Shown piece after piece: positions 8,975 through 57,385 of a stretch of DNA of 64,000 nucleotides. Source of the DNA: a virus (lineage: Duplodnaviria > Caudoviricetes); the IMG/VR virus record IMGVR_UViG_3300028864_000017; one strand, written 5' to 3'. The notes beneath the pieces were generated by a model that saw only the letters and a list, made by a program, of their open reading frames with translations, had not been told where the DNA came from and searched no databases. Every line of letters starts with the position of its first letter. Within the stretch, counting starts at the first letter, position 1. A program made the position numbers and the translations under genes.

Positions 8975-9650
8975 ATATATTGTATTTATTTATTTTGTTT
9001 GATAACTCTATTAATTTTGATATTGAATCTCCTTCTAAATTTAATGATTTTAGATAATTATTAAATTCATCAATAAAATCTTCATTTATATCATACCATC
9101 TTTGATCTAATTTATCTAAATCTTCATTTTTATCATTATCATACTCACTATATTCTCCGTTATCTCCATTGTAACAATTAAAATTAACACTATCAAAATT
9201 AAAATCTTTCATTATTGAATATGCATCATATACTAATTTTTTAGAAATATGTTCTGATATTTTTAATTTTTCAAACAAAATAATCATTTTTTCATGAATA
9301 TCAACGTTATTATAAGGATTACCACCACGGTTATAATAACCTTTTGATTTAGAACTGGCATATCCATTATCATAATATTGTAGATGCCCGCCATTAAAAA
9401 CTTGTCCATTATAGTTACCAAGAAGAACACAAAAACACGGTAATGTTCCATATTTTTCTTTTACCAAATTTAAAAAATCATCATAATTAATATCAGATGA
9501 ATAATCTTTATATAAAACATCAATTATACCGTGAAATACATCACCTTTTGAAAAATCTTCATTTTTTAATAATAATGTTTTCAATTCTTTTTCATTTTTG
9601 AATAATATTATAGAATAACTATTTTCTTCATACATTTTAACATGTTTCAT
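8973..9650 (-). CDS. DUF4375/DMP19-like protein with terminal tags
   Basis: LGNYNGQVFNGGHLQYYDNG resembles the DMP19 family motif; acidic; MKHVKMYEE...NKYNI. Confidence 0.55.
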   Translation of the reverse strand: MKHVKMYEENSYSIILFKNEKELKTLLLKNEDFSKGDVFHGIIDVLYKDYSSDINYDDFLNLVKEKYGTLPCFCVLLGNYNGQVFNGGHLQYYDNGYASSKSKGYYNRGGNPYNNVDIHEKMIILFEKLKISEHISKKLVYDAYSIMKDFNFDSVNFNCYNGDNGEYSEYDNDKNEDLDKLDQRWYDINEDFIDEFNNYLKSLNLEGDSISKLIELSNKINKYNI

Positions 9651-35759: not shown

Positions 35760-35791
35760 TTTGGTAGATTGAAAACTTTATTGTACTTTTG
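35760..35791 (+). promoter_or_regulatory. Bacteroidota-type promoter for the leader and tRNA array (copy 2)
   Basis: TTTG-N20-TACTTTTG. Confidence 0.8.
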
Positions 35792-35892: not shown

Positions 35893-36000
35893 ATGAGAGC
35901 AATAAGTAAACATAGTAGTTCATCAAAATCCTTTAAATTCTGGTTTAGAAAAACCAAGTTTGGAACAGATACTTCTTGTCTTATTGTTAATATAAGCTAA
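35893..36000 (+). CDS. putative attenuator leader peptide (35 aa) MRAISKHSSSSKSFKFWFRKTKFGTDTSCLIVNIS
   Basis: A-rich leader then ATG; codons 5-23 are 17/19 Ser/Lys/His/Phe/Trp, matching the downstream tRNAs. Confidence 0.75.
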   Translation: MRAISKHSSSSKSFKFWFRKTKFGTDTSCLIVNIS

Positions 36001-36037
36001 CATTAATAAATGTAAAAAAGAAATATAAATCCAAACT
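35957..36037 (+). promoter_or_regulatory. putative antiterminator
   Basis: agtttgga (35957-35964) is complementary to terminator 5' arm tccaaact (36030-36037); inner helices ttctt/aagaa, cttat/ataag, acatt/aatgt. Confidence 0.65.
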
Positions 36038-36058
36038 CAAAAAGTTTGGATTTTTTTT
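36028..36058 (+). terminator. intrinsic terminator (attenuator) in front of the tRNA array
   Basis: aatccaaact-caaaa-agtttggatt followed by a U tract. Confidence 0.88.
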
Positions 36059-36101: not shown

Positions 36102-36186
36102 GTACCTGGAGCTCGGTTGGAGACGTAAGTCGTTGAGCCAATGTCTTTTAAACATTAGGTCGTGGGTTCAAGTCCCATCAGGTACA
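36102..36186 (+). tRNA. tRNA-Lys(UUU) with enlarged D loop
   Basis: gtacctg/caggtac; aatgt-ctTTTaa-acatt; T loop ttcaagt; 20-nt D loop containing gac-gtaa-gtc. Confidence 0.85.
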
Positions 36187-36190
36187 CAAT

Positions 36191-36263
36191 GGACCGTTAG
36201 CTCAGTTGGTAGAGCTTAAAACTTTTAATTTTAAGGTCGTGAGTTCAAATCTCACACGGTTCA
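36191..36263 (+). tRNA. tRNA-Lys(UUU)
   Basis: ggaccgt/acggttc; taaaa-ctTTTaa-tttta; canonical D and T arms. Confidence 0.93.
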
Positions 36264-36392
36264 CATTTGTCATAGTGGATGACAGTTATTCAGTTAGGCT
36301 GGGCATAAAAATTATCCATCGGAATGGTGAGAAGCTATTATAAAAAATAAATATAAAATCATGGGGTAAAGTTAGATTTCGACAAAAAATTT

Positions 36393-36704
36393 ATGACACA
36401 AAGAGATGAAACAGGACGATTCATTGTTAAGTCATTAAAAACAGGTAAAAGTTATTATGTGGAACCAATTGGTTCAAAAAGATCATCAAGTTGGGGATCA
36501 TATAATCCAAGTACAGGTGATATTGAACATAAAAAAGGATATGATAAATATTCAGGTGCAATATCAGAAGATGAAAGCCTAATTACAAAAGAAAATGGAT
36601 TTGAAGATATTACATATTCAGGAATAGGTGTTTCACCATTCTCAGTGATTGAGAAATTAGATTTAGAATATGAAAGAAAAATAATACTTGATAAAAACAA
36701 GTAA
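36393..36704 (+). CDS. hypothetical protein within the tRNA array
   Basis: ETGRFIVKSLKTGKSYYVEPIG...ITKENGF; open frame with A-rich leader. Confidence 0.8.
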   Translation: MTQRDETGRFIVKSLKTGKSYYVEPIGSKRSSSWGSYNPSTGDIEHKKGYDKYSGAISEDESLITKENGFEDITYSGIGVSPFSVIEKLDLEYERKIILDKNK

Positions 36705-36712
36705 TGGTATAA

Positions 36713-36787
36713 GGGAAGGTAGCTCCAAATGAGTAGAGCATCACGTTGAAGCCGTGAGTGTTATGGGTTCGAGTCCCATTCTTCCCA
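36713..36787 (+). tRNA. tRNA-Phe(GAA)
   Basis: gggaagg/tcttccc; tcacg-ttGAAgc-cgtga; T loop ttcgagt. Confidence 0.92.
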
Positions 36788-36796
36788 CAAAAATAT

Positions 36797-36877
36797 GCGT
36801 CAGTATGCAAGTGGCTAAAGCTGTTGGTCTCCAAAACCAATCCGTAAGGTTCGTGGGTTCAAATCCTGCCTGGCGTG
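36797..36877 (+). tRNA. tRNA-Trp(CCA) with long variable region
   Basis: gcgtcag/ctggcgt; ttggt-ctCCAaa-accaa; 12-nt variable region. Confidence 0.88.
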
Positions 36878-36910
36878 CAATGATATTCTAAGAGTAGAAT
36901 ATTATAACTT

Positions 36911-37001
36911 GGAAGTATAAGCCCAGTTGGTCTAAGGGTAGCTGTCCTGAAAACAGTAGGTCGCTAAAAACGGCGTGTGGGTTCAAGTCCTACTACTTCC
37001 G
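36911..37001 (+). tRNA. tRNA-Ser(UGA), C at position 33
   Basis: ggaagta/tacttcc+G; gctgt-ccTGAaa-acagt; long variable arm. Confidence 0.88.
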
Positions 37002-37009
37002 CAAAAAAT

Positions 37010-37097
37010 GGTAAGTTAAGCAGTCAATTGGAGTGGCGACTAGCCTTGAAAACTAGGTTTCGTTTAATCGGATGGGGGTCGGGTCCTCAACTTACCG
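37010..37097 (+). tRNA. tRNA-Ser(UGA), divergent T loop
   Basis: ggtaagt/acttacc+G; ctagc-ctTGAaa-actag; long variable arm; T loop gtcgggt. Confidence 0.78.
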
Positions 37098-37111
37098 CAA
37101 ATTATTAAAAA

Positions 37112-37184
37112 GGAGATTAAGCTAATCTGGTGAAAGCGTATGCCTGAAGAGCATGAGAGATTGGATCAAAACCAATAATCTCCA
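37112..37184 (+). tRNA. tRNA-Phe(GAA), divergent T loop
   Basis: ggagatt/aatctcc; tatgc-ctGAAga-gcatg; T arm attgg-atcaaaa-ccaat. Confidence 0.85.
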
Positions 37185-37189
37185 CATAA

Positions 37190-37280
37190 GGAAAATTAAG
37201 TCCATAATTGGTATTGGCGCAGTTTGCTAAACTGTTCATCGAGTTAAATCGGTGTGAGGGTCCAAGTCCCCCATTTTCCG
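37190..37280 (+). tRNA. tRNA-Ser(GCU)
   Basis: ggaaaat/attttcc+G; gcagt-ttGCTaa-actgt; long variable arm. Confidence 0.85.
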
Positions 37281-37309
37281 CAAATATTCAGAATGTGAAT
37301 ATTATATAT

Positions 37310-37397
37310 GTCACTTGTAGTCGGTAAGGGATGCCGCCCTGATTGTGGTTCAGGAATACTTAATAGTTAATGTGGGTTCGAATCCCATCTGGTGACC
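37310..37397 (+). tRNA. tRNA-His(GUG) with long variable region
   Basis: cctga-ttGTGgt-tcagg; T arm gtggg-ttcgaat-cccat; about 17-nt variable insert. Confidence 0.8.
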
Positions 37398-37405
37398 AAA
37401 TATAT

Positions 37406-37480
37406 GGTGGATATAGTGTTAGCGGTTAGCACGTTAGGTTGTGGTCCTAAAAGGTTCGGTTCGAATCCGAATATTCACCC
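37406..37480 (+). tRNA. tRNA-His(GUG)
   Basis: ggtggata/tattcacc; ttagg-ttGTGgt-cctaa; T loop ttcgaat. Confidence 0.92.
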
Positions 37481-37486
37481 CAAAAA

Positions 37487-37577
37487 AAAGATTATTGATG
37501 AAGTGCTGGAAGCCTTAGTTCGATTCTGATAGTCACTGATTAGTCATCAGTAAAGGTTGACAACCTTTGTAATCTTT
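37487..37577 (+). ncRNA. structured RNA with T-loop-like arm, no anticodon arm
   Basis: closing stem aaagatta/taatcttt; ttag-ttcgatt-ctga; actgat/atcagt; aaaggt/accttt. Confidence 0.5.
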
Positions 37578-37591
37578 TTTGACATTAAAAT

Positions 37592-37663
37592 GCTCTTGTA
37601 GCTTAATGGTAGAGCTGTTCCCTCTTAAGGAAAGGGTTGTGGGTTCGATTCCCACCAAGAGCA
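37592..37663 (+). tRNA. tRNA-Lys(CUU)
   Basis: gctcttg/caagagc; gttcc-ctCTTaa-ggaaa; T loop ttcgatt. Confidence 0.92.
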
Positions 37664-38474: not shown

Positions 38475-39248
38475 ATGTACTACGTAATACAAGAAAATAC
38501 TTTCAAAGAAGAAAATTATGATAATTTAGTTGAAACATTAGATAGAATGAAATTACCTTATGAAGTAGTTAAGGTTTTGCCATTTGTAGAAGATTTTGAG
38601 TTTAAAACTAATAGAAAAGATGTATTTTGCTTTGGTTCTGTTAAAATGGCAAGATTAGCAAAAAAATACAAATGGTTTCCTGGTTCTCAATTGAATGATA
38701 ATCATGATTATAGAGTTTATAGTAAATATTACAAGGAAAATTTGTTGAATTATGATTCAATAGTTCAAAAATTTGGAGATGATATTAATGAAAGGACTTT
38801 ATTTTTTGCTAGACCGTGTGAAGATACAAAAACATTTACTGGAAAGGTATTTGATATGTATGAATGGATAGAATTTAGAGATAATCATTTGAATAGTGAA
38901 TATGAAACTTCATTAACAAAAGATACTGATATTCAAGTTAGTTCTGTTAAAAAAATAACAAAAGAATTTAGGTTTTGGATAGTTGGAGGAAAAGTTGTGA
39001 CTGGAAGTCTATATAGAATGGGATATTTTATTAATAGAAGTGAATTAGTTGATGATGGAGCATTAGAATTTTGCAAAGAAATGGTTAGTATTTATAATAT
39101 ATCAAATTCTTTTGTGATGGATATTTGTGAAGTGATTATTGATGGTAATCCTGAATATAAAATAATTGAATTGGGATGTATTAATTCGGCAGGTTTTTAT
39201 TCTGCAAATATGCCTAAGTTAATTAATGCTCTTGAAGAAGAATTTTAA
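38475..39248 (+). CDS. ATP-grasp domain protein (R2K/DUF4343-like)
   Basis: FARPCEDTKTFTG, EFRFWIVGGKVVTGSLY, FVMDI, IIELGCINSAGFY. Confidence 0.85.
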   Translation: MYYVIQENTFKEENYDNLVETLDRMKLPYEVVKVLPFVEDFEFKTNRKDVFCFGSVKMARLAKKYKWFPGSQLNDNHDYRVYSKYYKENLLNYDSIVQKFGDDINERTLFFARPCEDTKTFTGKVFDMYEWIEFRDNHLNSEYETSLTKDTDIQVSSVKKITKEFRFWIVGGKVVTGSLYRMGYFINRSELVDDGALEFCKEMVSIYNISNSFVMDICEVIIDGNPEYKIIELGCINSAGFYSANMPKLINALEEEF

Positions 39249-55321: not shown

Positions 55322-57385
55322 TTAAGCTTGCTTACAAATTCCTTTATTGTGAGTTAGTATATTATTTGCAATATATGTACCTAAATCTGTAGATATGTTT
55401 ATAACTTCTTTCTCAATATTTTCTATTGATATGCTTGATATTAATACCTCTGCCATATCTTTATCTACTAATATGTCACCAATTTTAAGATTTATTGCAT
55501 CTTTTTCAATCATCATATTATTTACTTTAATTAAGTGTCTATGACTTTCTGATGACTCTAATAATCCATTGTTAATATTAATAATTTTATTTACAATGTG
55601 ATTTGATTTACTAGTTACATTGGATATTACATATTCATAATTATAAATTGTTAATAATTTATCACCGATATTAATTTCACTTAGCATTTTTATCGAATTA
55701 TCAAACATTGTTATTAATGTAGTAGGAATCAAACATGTTGCGGCTATAGATAAATCACTAGAATAATATATATTCAATGGAAGTGCTGAATCATTAACAT
55801 AAGCTGTGACATGATATATTCCACCTGATATTTGAACTATTGAATACGGTACTAAGAAGCTATTTTCATCGTAACTTACTCCATTACTTATTGTCATTGA
55901 CATTGACTGACAATTTTCATACGATTTTTGAAATGTGTATGTATATGGAGGTTTTCCTCCATCAATAGTTAATCTTAATGATGTCGGATTATTTTCAGTT
56001 AATGAGACATAAGATATAGGACTGTATGATGTGGTTGTTGTAGTCGTTGTTGGTGCTACATTATTATATGTCAATGTATTAGAATATCTAAGATTGGTAT
56101 AATCATATATTCTAAATACTAATATTTGTCTTGGATAAGATGATGCGATACCAAAATCTCTTGGACTAATTCCACTACCTTGATTTGATGTTGGTGTGAA
56201 TGTTGTTCCTCCATCAGTAGAGAATTGATTTCCTAATGTACCAACTGGTTTAGAACCAACATCAAAATTAAACCACAAATTTAATCCTATCAAATTTATA
56301 GTTTGTAATGTTAATAAACTTGATGTAGTTGTAGTGGTAGTTGTCGCTGGTATGCTATTATCGAAATTTACCATATTAGATAATGGAACTGATGCTGAAT
56401 ATGTTTGATTAGAAAGCCAAAAATACATTAGAGTTCTTGTATAATTATTTTGTGCTCCAATATTTATAACTCCTGGTATAGGTGTTATGACAATACTTGC
56501 AGAATTTAATCCATCGTATGAATAAGTAACTACTAATTTTGTCGATTCAATAGGAACATTAGAATAACTTATCATAATATCACCATTTAGAAGATATACA
56601 CTTTCTATATTAGGTGTTGAAATATTTTTTATTGTTGTTGTTGTAGTTGAAGATGTTGGTATCCATGAATTTTTTAATATTTGAGTCCATAAATAACTAG
56701 AACCAGACTGCATACACATTTCTAAATACGAATTATATGTATCATTTCGATATCTAAATGTTCCTGTTGTTCCAGAGTTACAGTCAGAGCAATATCCAAC
56801 TACCATTATATTATTAACATTATTGCAAGTTATTTGTTTAACATATATTTTATCATTATTATTTGGTGATGATAGTGAATAACAACTACCTAAATTTACT
56901 AAATTATCATTTAAATACCATTCATATGAATAGTCTGTATATCCTGTAAGCCCAGTAACTGAAAAAGTTACAATTGTTCCAGGAGTTATATAACAAACTC
57001 CATTATTTAATGACGTTGGGGTAGATATTGGATTACTTTCTATCTTTGGTATATTTGTAATTATTATTGAAGTAGATGATACTTGTGAATAAGATATTGT
57101 TATTATATTGGATTGGTAACTGTGACAAGGTGATATTCCAGAAGTTCCATTCACACCAGGTAATCCAGAAGATCCATCAGTACCAGATGTACCAGAAGTT
57201 CCGCTCGTTGAACCAGTATAATCAAATAATACATATTCTTTGATTTGATCCAAATCTATTCTTTTTATGTTAGATGTATAACCTTGATTTATTGTATCTC
57301 CGCTGTAATCAACAGGAAAAATTAATCCACCATTTATATTAGTTTCGTTCTCTAGATTTCTTATTCTTATTATGTTTGGCATCAA
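55322..57385 (-). CDS. Thr-rich fibre/adhesin-like virion protein with C-terminal Hint domain
   Basis: N-terminus shared with 53482..55302, SGTSG repeats, poly-Thr linkers; Hint from CLIPTTLI (55735) to ILTHN (55346), about 130 aa. Confidence 0.78.
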   Translation of the reverse strand: MMPNIIRIRNLENETNINGGLIFPVDYSGDTINQGYTSNIKRIDLDQIKEYVLFDYTGSTSGTSGTSGTDGSSGLPGVNGTSGISPCHSYQSNIITISYSQVSSTSIIITNIPKIESNPISTPTSLNNGVCYITPGTIVTFSVTGLTGYTDYSYEWYLNDNLVNLGSCYSLSSPNNNDKIYVKQITCNNVNNIMVVGYCSDCNSGTTGTFRYRNDTYNSYLEMCMQSGSSYLWTQILKNSWIPTSSTTTTTIKNISTPNIESVYLLNGDIMISYSNVPIESTKLVVTYSYDGLNSASIVITPIPGVINIGAQNNYTRTLMYFWLSNQTYSASVPLSNMVNFDNSIPATTTTTTTSSLLTLQTINLIGLNLWFNFDVGSKPVGTLGNQFSTDGGTTFTPTSNQGSGISPRDFGIASSYPRQILVFRIYDYTNLRYSNTLTYNNVAPTTTTTTTSYSPISYVSLTENNPTSLRLTIDGGKPPYTYTFQKSYENCQSMSMTISNGVSYDENSFLVPYSIVQISGGIYHVTAYVNDSALPLNIYYSSDLSIAATCLIPTTLITMFDNSIKMLSEINIGDKLLTIYNYEYVISNVTSKSNHIVNKIININNGLLESSESHRHLIKVNNMMIEKDAINLKIGDILVDKDMAEVLISSISIENIEKEVINISTDLGTYIANNILTHNKGICKQA

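Follow-up and report, generated by a model that had tools for sequence, protein, structure and literature searches.

Why should a bacteriophage carry several genes for the same tRNA specificity, some of ordinary build and others with bodies that depart from it? The question is raised by positions 36,102–37,663 of IMGVR_UViG_3300028864_000017 (Duplodnaviria; Caudoviricetes), a stretch of 64,000 nucleotides hereafter called the window, in which a dense tRNA operon is located. An earlier note, made from the letters alone, had described redundant, structurally odd tRNAs at this place and proposed that they escape host anticodon nucleases or modification-dependent toxins. According to textbook rules, a long variable arm occurs only in Ser, Leu, Tyr and Sec tRNAs, and the D loop contains no helix. 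Both rules are broken in this operon, by RNAs that are maintained as judged from covariation and that keep normal identity marks. We hold, with moderate confidence in the statement as a whole, that this maintained and gated operon is a depletion-induced back-up supply, with tRNA bodies that suit host shape-reading enzymes poorly. We are far surer that the genes are genuine, under selection and gated than that they serve in escape.

Eleven tRNA genes and the maintenance of the atypical copies

Relaxed ARAGORN and direct reading gave eleven tRNA genes, all on the + strand: two for Lys(UUU), one for Lys(CUU), two for Phe(GAA), one for Trp, two for Ser(UGA), one for Ser(GCU) and two for His, together providing seven anticodons (Table 1, genes A to K). 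The nine genes named in the earlier note stand; Ser(GCU) had been missed and Lys(CUU) was unlisted. ARAGORN and Rfam confirm the presence of two genes each for Lys(UUU), Phe(GAA), Ser(UGA) and His(GUG), and to call the paired bodies unrelated is fair, since the same-anticodon pairs are 56–73% identical, about the background between any two operon tRNAs. Every gene folds into a cloverleaf with a 7-nt anticodon loop. The oddities reported earlier are likewise present. The D loop of Lys A is expanded to ~20 nt by a 12–14 nt insertion after G19, which contains a 10-nt hairpin, GAC-GTAA-GTC (36122–36131), and position 8 is G. Trp D and His I have variable regions of ~12 and ~17 nt. The arm of the former consists of 2 bp and a GTAA loop (3–4 bp in relatives) and that of the latter of a 3–4 bp AT-rich stem, both shorter than typical Ser/Leu arms. 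One Ser tRNA has C33 (E), and the T loops of F, G and H deviate as described. The universal residues (U8, U33, G18G19, T54-Psi55-C56 and A58) are thus broken by G8 in A, the lack of the D-loop GG in C, C33 in E, G54/G58 in F, A54 in G and C55 in H, and are kept in B, J and K. Ser F can be drawn as an 8/4 form, like the fold of allo-tRNA and tRNA-Sec with its 12-bp stack of 8 acceptor and 4 T-stem pairs, or as a 7/5 form with a U-A closing pair; covariation does not decide between the two, and the anticodon is the normal Ser UGA. Ser H, with an A-C mismatch in the T stem, a perfect acceptor stem (GGAAAAT/ATTTTCC) and an odd T loop confined to the lineage of the window, is the weakest gene of the set. 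The earlier statement that none of the genes encodes CCA fails for His J, in which CCA follows C73 (37480–37482); the other ten end in N73-C-A. N73-C-A is also the almost invariable end in the 97 related loci introduced below, where it occurs in every amino-acid class.

Cognate identity is set by the discriminator and the anticodon of the amino acid, and His tRNA requires G-1:C73. In the operon, the discriminators match the amino acid of the anticodon throughout: A73 on Lys and Phe, G73 on Trp and Ser, and C73 with G-1 on both His tRNAs. Trp D and His I combine the anticodons CCA and GUG with Trp-type and His-type discriminators and, by these marks, do not show the Ser, Leu or Tyr specificity of class II tRNAs. 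The anticodon loops are identical between the two Lys(UUU) genes, and likewise between the two His genes. That of Phe C is also found in Phe tRNAs of L006, L095 and L089 (related loci are cited by such numbers).

Covariance-model scoring, which the earlier note had suggested, recovers seven of the eleven genes. With Rfam RF00005, for which the gathering threshold is 29 bits, B, C, D, E, G, J and K score 42.6–72.5 bits; Lys A gives a partial match (36129–36186) of 26.3 bits, below the threshold, and none of F, H and I is listed even at E ≤ 10. Default ARAGORN also returns seven tRNAs, but not the same seven, as A, F, G and H are missed. Deletion of 12–14 nt from Lys A in silico yields a default ARAGORN Lys call. 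Standard finders therefore miss about one third of these genes, and phage tRNA repertoires are probably under-counted. A match to the Y RNA-like RNA YrlA (36134–36250; 34 bits against a threshold of 69) merely spans two adjacent tRNAs and was discarded.

The earlier note would have been refuted by atypical copies that decay across relatives, and the opposite was found, with compensatory changes in Lys A, Trp D, His I, Phe G and Ser F. The covariation evidence covers these five genes; E and H are without informative close relatives. BLAST and a family covariance model placed Lys A in a D-loop-hairpin family of four members in three phages, the relatives being two genes in L029 and one in L006. 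All 24 pairs are standard in all four members (96 of 96 cells), nine of the 24 have changed on both sides, and none of 500 shuffles matched this pairing. Within the hairpin, A-U is replaced by G-C at one pair and C-G by U-G at another; its loop remains GNRA (GUAA or GAAA), and both G8 and the hairpin occur in all four. For the long-armed Trp tRNAs, 13 of 19 pairs changed on both sides across eight relatives, and the stem of the extra hairpin varies among CC/GG, ACC/GGT, AAC/GTT and GAG/CTC. The long-armed His tRNAs gave 13 of 20 pairs across six relatives; in His I, three acceptor pairs are flipped with retention of the pairing and of G-1:C73. Phe G gave 14 of 23 pairs across five relatives, in which positions 54/58 read A/A, C/G, A/U or U/A. 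For Ser F, identity is 97.8% to the L001 copy and 92% to that in L005, and two pairs are compensatory. In Ser(UGA), the loop CCUGAAA is also present in L029 and in the published phage LR756500, so that C33 is found in three phages counting that of the window. A Glu tRNA family with the loop CCUUCAA occurs in four loci. Taken together, this covariation indicates that the atypical copies are maintained RNAs with folds under selection, and are not decaying.

Two candidate arguments were set aside. A sequencing slip as the origin of C33 is ruled out by its recurrence in other phages. Nor does the 100% identity of F, G and H to L023 count in favour of selection, since the spacers within the block 37003–37309 are identical as well. 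As a separate observation on T loops, the relative of Phe G in L025 reads C54/G58, and loops of the form AUCGUNN, in which T54:A58 is replaced by A54:U58, occur in ten tRNAs (His, Phe, Lys, Asn and Ala) of L012, L013, L018, L032, L043 and L051.

Table 1. Features of the tRNA operon and its leader region in the window
Feature	Position	Strand	Observations
Promoter-like pair TTTG ... TACTTTTG	35760–35791	+	Upstream of the leader; region conserved in L023 and L001
Leader ORF MRAISKHSSSSKSFKFWFRKTKFGTDTSCLIVNIS	35893–36000	+	35 codons
Putative antiterminator arm AGTTTGGA	35957–35964	+	Inside the leader ORF; exact copy of the terminator 3' arm
Predicted intrinsic terminator	36027–36058	+	11-pair stem, then T run; between the leader and the first tRNA
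tRNA-Lys(UUU) A	36102–36186	+	Relaxed ARAGORN; family covariance model R1, 106 bits; A73
tRNA-Lys(UUU) B, canonical	36191–36263	+	Rfam 72.5 bits; ARAGORN
ORF of 103 aa within the operon	36393–36704	+	At the same place in L001 and L023
tRNA-Phe(GAA) C	36713–36787	+	Rfam 54.1 bits; anticodon loop TTGAAGC (G37, C38); D loop without GG
tRNA-Trp(CCA) D	36797–36877	+	Rfam 42.6 bits; variable-region mini-hairpin CC-GTAA-GG; G73
tRNA-Ser(UGA) E	36911–37001	+	Rfam 45 bits; C33, loop CCTGAAA; G73; loop recurs in L029 and L021
tRNA-Ser(UGA) F	37010–37097	+	Relaxed ARAGORN only; T loop GTCGGGT; C-A mismatch atop the anticodon stem; G73
tRNA-Phe(GAA) G	37112–37184	+	Rfam 55.5 bits; T loop ATCAAAA (A54); G37
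tRNA-Ser(GCU) H	37190–37280	+	Relaxed ARAGORN, register hand-corrected; T loop TCCAAGT (C55); G73
tRNA-His(GUG) I	37310–37396	+	ARAGORN; 17-nt variable region (37355–37371); G-1, C73
tRNA-His(GUG) J, canonical	37406–37482	+	Rfam 52.3 bits; G-1, C73, encoded CCA (read directly)
Mini-ORF MKCWKP and terminator-like hairpin with T run	37498–37580	+	Just upstream of Lys(CUU) K
tRNA-Lys(CUU) K, canonical	37592–37663	+	Rfam 69.2 bits

Leader peptides and the probable gating of tRNA operons

The region upstream of the first tRNA gene contains a short leader ORF, in the core of which 14 of 16 codons can be read by the seven anticodons of the operon, as compared with 24% of the codons of window genes (binomial 1.7e-7, a post hoc value, as the codon window was picked after the sequence had been viewed). 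The codons concerned are AGT, TCA, AAA, AAG, CAT, TTT/TTC and TGG. The leader peptide is identical in L001 and shares 33 of 35 residues with that of L023 (MRSIS..., ...KTEFG...). When the 3' arm of the predicted terminator is omitted from the fold, AGTTTGGA pairs with TCCAAACT (36030–36037). A short ORF rich in the regulatory codons, an intrinsic terminator and a mutually exclusive antiterminator are therefore all found in the sequence, and the operon appears to be gated at the transcription level by a leader attenuator. The promoter-like pair, TTTG ... TACTTTTG, is presumably of the Bacteroidota -33/-7 type, an assignment that we base on Bacteroides promoters.

The same arrangement recurs in relatives, where each operon examined (five across five relatives) sits behind a leader peptide in the codons of its own tRNAs, with a terminator. 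L012 and L006 have S/K/H/F/W leaders. In L005, an N/Y/S/D/I/T/E leader precedes Asn, Tyr, Asp, Ser, Met, Thr and Glu tRNAs, and in L013 an N/Y/I/E/C/D/M leader precedes Met, Glu, Asp, Asn, Tyr, Cys and Ile tRNAs; the leader of L011 also follows its own tRNA set. The leaders thus change together with the tRNA sets. The antiterminator and terminator arms co-vary, and the matching pair of L012, GGTTCGGAT / ATCCGAACC, differs from that of the window. In L001, the operon behind the same leader as that of the window holds only long forms of Lys(UUU), Trp and His, and a feedback of this kind makes sense only if the long-armed tRNAs decode.

These findings also explain the restriction to Lys, Phe, Trp, Ser and His that the earlier note had stressed. 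It holds for this operon, as the grouping of one regulatory unit, and fails beyond it: several clusters of a 501 kb relative contain at least 49 tRNA matches, and a published 735 kb phage has 66. The idea that the set indicates which tRNAs the host defences target is not borne out, since the operon is one of several amino-acid-grouped operons, which in the relatives together cover at least 15 specificities.

A second, smaller switch may lie within the operon. The mini-ORF MKCWKP has two AAG codons, and AGCCTT within it can pair with the hairpin arm AAGGTT. The region is 90–92% conserved in L001, L004 and L023, with a fold z-score of -1.96 and a different stop position in L023, and it may be a single-tRNA attenuator for Lys(CUU).

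Extra-armed tRNAs in relatives and in other genomes

The wider distribution was followed in 97 non-duplicate related loci, gathered through the neighbouring ATP-grasp gene, in which ARAGORN found 401 tRNAs. When a long form is defined as a class I tRNA with a variable region of at least 9 nt, the loci contain 49 distinct long forms, distributed as Trp 10/18, Lys 9/34, His 8/42, Met 7/12, Gln 6/29, Glu 4/17, Pro 4/27, Cys 3/6, Thr 3/15 and Asp 2/26 (long/all). Their hairpin stems average 3.9 bp; shuffled versions average 2.97 bp, and the best of 200 shuffles reached 3.24. GAAA, GUAA or GCAA loops cap at least 20 of the 49 hairpins. Long and short forms share their discriminator base for 11 amino acids, and His retains G-1. 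The closest relative, L023, carries a GAC-GAAA-GUC hairpin in the variable region of its Lys(UUU) tRNA, whereas an essentially identical hairpin lies in the D loop in the window and L029. Host inference and genome-wide counts in this study are drawn from such relatives, and the tRNA differences described are those between copies within the phage set.

Exact and narrow D-loop-hairpin patterns gave no match in IMG/VR. A broader 26-base pattern matched only the L006 contig there, and had no match in 185,579 species genomes. A pattern scan of the same species genomes found at least 32 Trp(CCA) tRNAs of 78–93 nt. At least 19 of these belong to arrays with a density of five or more tRNAs per 8 kb, the assemblies being labelled Gemmata, Lutibacter, Bacteriovoracaceae and others. 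Long Lys, Met, Asn, Thr and Cys tRNAs are found in these arrays too, together with 75-nt Leu tRNAs. Given the occurrence of long-armed tRNAs in the arrays of many assemblies, the extra arm on class I tRNAs is, to judge from these genes, a general trait of mobile tRNA arrays and not a peculiarity of the window.

Other unusual tRNAs were encountered. The species-genome scan gave at least eight single CCA-anticodon genes with Ser-like bodies; those of L114, L177, L182, L183, L222 and other bacterial assemblies are 90–92 nt long and encode CCA, and four of the five named have G73, L114 having U73. They may be charged with Ser and read Trp codons, and have nothing to do with the design seen in the phages. 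The rule on variable arms is broken in reverse by tRNAs of 75–76 nt with Leu anticodons and no long variable arm (L011:2640-2714 and 9165-9239; L145 and L163 in Gemmata arrays). Amber-suppressor-type tRNAs (CUA) in L005:11799-11871, L017:285-356 and L021:6207-6275 hint at recoding of TAG in part of the relatives' genomes. The Lys covariance model also gave full-length matches of 135 nt at 27–28 bits on the minus strand (L012:1216-1350 and L006:3435-3569), which may be tRNA-like genes with an insertion of ~60 nt. Between the tRNA genes of L023 lie a DUF559/REase-type ORF (L023:882-1862) and an HNH endonuclease ORF (L023:2467-3306), neither of which is present there in the window. Endonuclease insertions of this type probably explain the mosaic content of the operons, such as Lys A and B in the window versus a different long-armed Lys in L023.

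The window itself, with 22–29% GC along its length and 35% in the tRNA block, is read well by the standard code; there is no need for an alternative code, as long ORFs already cover 87% of it under table 11. Its phage genes include a T4-type large terminase and a family B DNA polymerase fragment, and no tRNA-related enzyme was found among the 20 window proteins surveyed. Just downstream of the operon lies an R2K ATP-grasp gene (38475–39248), relatives of which occur on IMG/VR contigs of up to 501 kb and which has weak DNA matches to published huge-phage genomes of 462–735 kb; the window is accordingly a fragment of a huge phage. For 159 metagenome stretches a homologue of this gene was confirmed, and among the 80 loci retained there are many with tRNA genes within 5 kb upstream. 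The ORF of 103 aa within the operon keeps its position in L001 and L023. It belongs to a family of at least 499 homologues (53–87% identity, some on contigs of up to 711 kb) and yielded neither a Pfam or PHROG family nor a useful Atlas neighbour; its confident AlphaFold2 model (mean pLDDT 82.5) had no fold match in the PDB. The host of this huge AT-rich phage is probably a member of the Bacteroidota, as suggested by promoter motifs and by matches of Ser E to tRNAs of Cellulophaga phages. The motif TTTG-N(18-22)-TAnnTTTG, which we take to represent the Bacteroidota housekeeping promoter (-33/-7), occurs nine times in the window, at 35760-35791, 21184, 34992, 47091, 48313 and 58835 on the + strand and at 56294, 17640 and 14251 on the - strand.

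Possible functions and comparison with known systems

How would such an operon serve the phage? The promoter would drive the 35-codon leader, and stalling of a ribosome in the leader would allow the segment AGUUUGGA to pair with the 5' arm of the terminator, so that the terminator is bypassed and transcription continues into the eleven tRNA genes. A switch that responds to slow decoding of the operon's own codons fits a back-up supply during tRNA depletion. The supply would mix the ordinary Lys B, Lys K and His J with remodelled isoacceptors. The latter are most likely charged with their normal amino acid and used in decoding; normal charging is likely because anticodon and discriminator are kept, with G-1 on His. 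The simplest reading is that charging of the remodelled tRNAs falls to host synthetases and the addition of CCA to an enzyme of the phage or the host, since the 501 kb relative (~70% complete) has no match to the synthetase families of class IIb (Lys/Asp/Asn), class Ic (Trp/Tyr) and His, and encodes a CCA-adding-type nucleotidyltransferase (G001:C1:441206-441595). The hairpin, in the D loop or on the side of the anticodon stem, could then plausibly spoil recognition by nucleases such as PARIS AriB, by toxins and possibly by modification enzymes, while contacts with the synthetase, EF-Tu and the ribosome would be left intact.

Nuclease escape by an altered body is plausible by analogy with known phages. 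Phage tRNAs rescue infection from tRNA nucleases (PMC11464382, PMC11555353), and a small number of changes close to the cut can suffice for escape (PMC10264068). In Lys(UUU), Thr(UGU) and Asn(GUU) tRNAs, PARIS AriB cleaves the anticodon stem at 40/41; its recognition extends over the anticodon stem, the D loop and other portions of the molecule (PMC12409363). Because the anticodon loops of the twin Lys(UUU) and twin His tRNAs are identical, any difference in sensitivity within these pairs must come from the tRNA body, and the anticodon-loop route of PMC10264068 does not separate the twins. Several observations weigh against our proposal. If host nucleases were the only pressure, the canonical copies in the same operon would be vulnerable. 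The Lys hairpin, placed in the D loop or in the variable region, lies on different faces of the molecule, and the two placements fit a generic handle or bulk effect as well as escape from a single enzyme. The identity of 37003–37309 to L023 is due to recent ancestry, not selection, and C55 and the T-stem mismatch of Ser H together with the C-A mismatch of Ser F could be mild decay. In addition, a phage synthetase could be missed in the incomplete 501 kb relative.

The operon might instead provide plain translational self-sufficiency for AT-rich codon usage, its odd shapes being tolerated quirks with no role in counter-defence. Such a need would agree with a genome of 24% GC with extreme codon bias (AAA, 84 per 1000 codons), with the 49–66 tRNAs for most amino acids in relatives and with the canonical copies beside the odd ones. 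His (1.5%) and Trp (1.2%) are, however, the rarest residues in window proteins, and the operon has three genes for them, so that codon demand fails to explain the set; GNRA-capped hairpins that recur with compensatory changes in many amino-acid families and in arrays of distant phyla are unlike neutral drift, and in the L001 operon the odd forms are the sole copies. We judge this explanation to be rather unlikely, though it deserves serious attention. A phage-encoded partner, for example one for maturation, modification or sorting, a protective protein, or an RNA, might use the hairpins as handles that mark a separate phage pool. The occurrence of the GAC-GNAA-GTC hairpin of Lys(UUU) both in the D loop (window, L029) and in the variable region (L023) would suit a portable module, GNRA loops dominate, and both the conserved 103-aa ORF inside the operon and the R2K ATP-grasp gene syntenic with tRNA clusters in many contigs could be considered in this connection. 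Yet the stems vary widely in sequence and length, which is ill-suited to sequence-specific recognition, the 103-aa ORF has no detectable fold relative, and none of the three synthetase families searched, including those for Lys, Trp and His, was matched in the 501 kb relative. We therefore regard handles of this type as improbable.

The remaining explanations carry far less weight. That the atypical copies are decaying duplicates could be read from the four genes below default detection thresholds and from the mismatches of Ser F and Ser H with C55 in the latter, but the intact stems, the many compensatory changes across lineages and the conservation of odd features (G8 and the hairpin in 4/4, C33 in three phages) make pseudogenes very unlikely, and for A, D, F, G and I this reading is largely refuted by the covariation. 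If the long-armed tRNAs were charged with Ser or Leu as class II tRNAs, Trp, His or Lys codons would be partly recoded, in the manner of nematode nev-tRNAs and allo-tRNAs. Bacterial SerRS recognises its tRNAs mainly by their long variable arm (PMC7609411), and some single long-armed CCA-anticodon tRNAs of bacterial genomes are Ser-like, with G73 and encoded CCA. The discriminators of the long forms nevertheless follow the amino acid of the anticodon (A on Lys, C with G-1 on His, U on Cys and Thr) and are not G73 throughout, and the arms of Trp and His have only 2–4 bp. We give such mischarging very little credence, with the proviso that for Trp, whose G73 would be acceptable to both TrpRS and SerRS, the discriminator does not speak against Ser charging. 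Intron-like excision of the hairpins after transcription, leaving ordinary mature tRNAs, would be in line with the canonical tRNA that Lys A becomes without its 12–14 nt. It is hardly credible given that no bulge-helix-bulge motif and no group I intron core was found and that the inserts are too short for such a core, and to our knowledge there is no bacterial or phage pathway that excises hairpins of 10–17 nt from D or variable loops.

Returning to the back-up supply, we extend it only tentatively, and with doubt, to a general proposal: mobile arrays of phages and other elements across many phyla would carry a second class I body plan, distinguished by a small hairpin, GNRA-capped in most cases, that sits either in the variable region or in the D loop, and whose tRNAs are charged and used normally and cannot be recognised by host nucleases and toxins, and which in this lineage is made on demand through depletion-sensing leaders.

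Among known regulatory systems, the leaders resemble the attenuators of trp, his and ilvGMEDA in their short ORF rich in regulatory codons and in their alternative antiterminator and terminator. In contrast to these, the regulated products are tRNAs themselves, and one leader would sense five amino acids at once. As for body plan, variable-arm tRNAs with foreign anticodons are known as nematode nev-tRNAs and as allo-tRNAs. These, like class II tRNAs, share with the window an extra stem-loop between the anticodon and T arms. Unlike them, the window arms are short, mostly GNRA-capped and borne by class I tRNAs (Trp, His, Lys and others) with their own discriminator, and in the Lys family the hairpin can sit in the D loop. 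No precedent for a D-loop helix was found in a review of non-canonical tRNAs (PMC7609411) or in the literature searched, and no description of extra-armed class I tRNAs or of a D-loop helix was found there for phages or elsewhere. A term search of that review, a viral tRNA-cluster survey, the anticodon-loop escape paper and the L-array paper gave the same result.

The closest functional parallel is phage T5 (PMC11464382, PMC12409363), which like the window has a large tRNA cluster with small ORFs, homing endonucleases (here in L023) and tRNA-like RNAs. Its tRNAs are a nuclease-insensitive replacement supply; T5 tRNA-Lys(UUU), Thr and Asn neutralise PARIS, and Lys(UUU) is central in T5 and in the window alike. 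T5 Lys owes its resistance to AriB to two point changes in the anticodon stem, whereas any resistance of Lys A would lie in its body. The class I tRNAs of T5 are of ordinary length (71–78 nt as annotated), with no long-armed form in T5 itself, while in the window the body plan is altered by a D-loop hairpin or an extra variable arm. In mycobacteriophages of cluster C1, escape involves mutations of the anticodon loop, according to PMC10264068, where the terms "variable" and "D-loop" do not occur; C33 of Ser E and G37 of Phe C and G would fit that route, whereas the twins of Lys(UUU) and His differ outside the anticodon loop. The bacterial and phage tRNA arrays (L-arrays), including an Anabaena operon that by title is needed under translational stress (PMC8421152; PMC5966550; PMC6409571), resemble the window in being dense, mobile, linked to homing endonucleases and proposed as stress back-up tRNA. 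A term search of PMC8421152 and PMC6409571 found no mention of remodelled arms; in our scan, long-armed Trp, Lys, Met and Asn tRNAs lie inside arrays of Gemmata, Lutibacter and other assemblies among the matches listed.

Phage tRNA arrays and nuclease-insensitive phage tRNAs are thus already known. The novelty lies in a family of Lys tRNAs with a hairpin in the D loop, in C33 as a recurrent feature and in the long-armed Trp tRNAs in arrays of assemblies from many phyla. If the hairpins do block defence nucleases, they would represent an escape route at the level of the tRNA body, beyond the known point mutations in the anticodon loop and stem, and could serve as portable modules for nuclease-proof or orthogonal tRNAs. 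The matched canonical and remodelled pairs within one operon, Lys A/B and His I/J, are ready-made controls for such a comparison.

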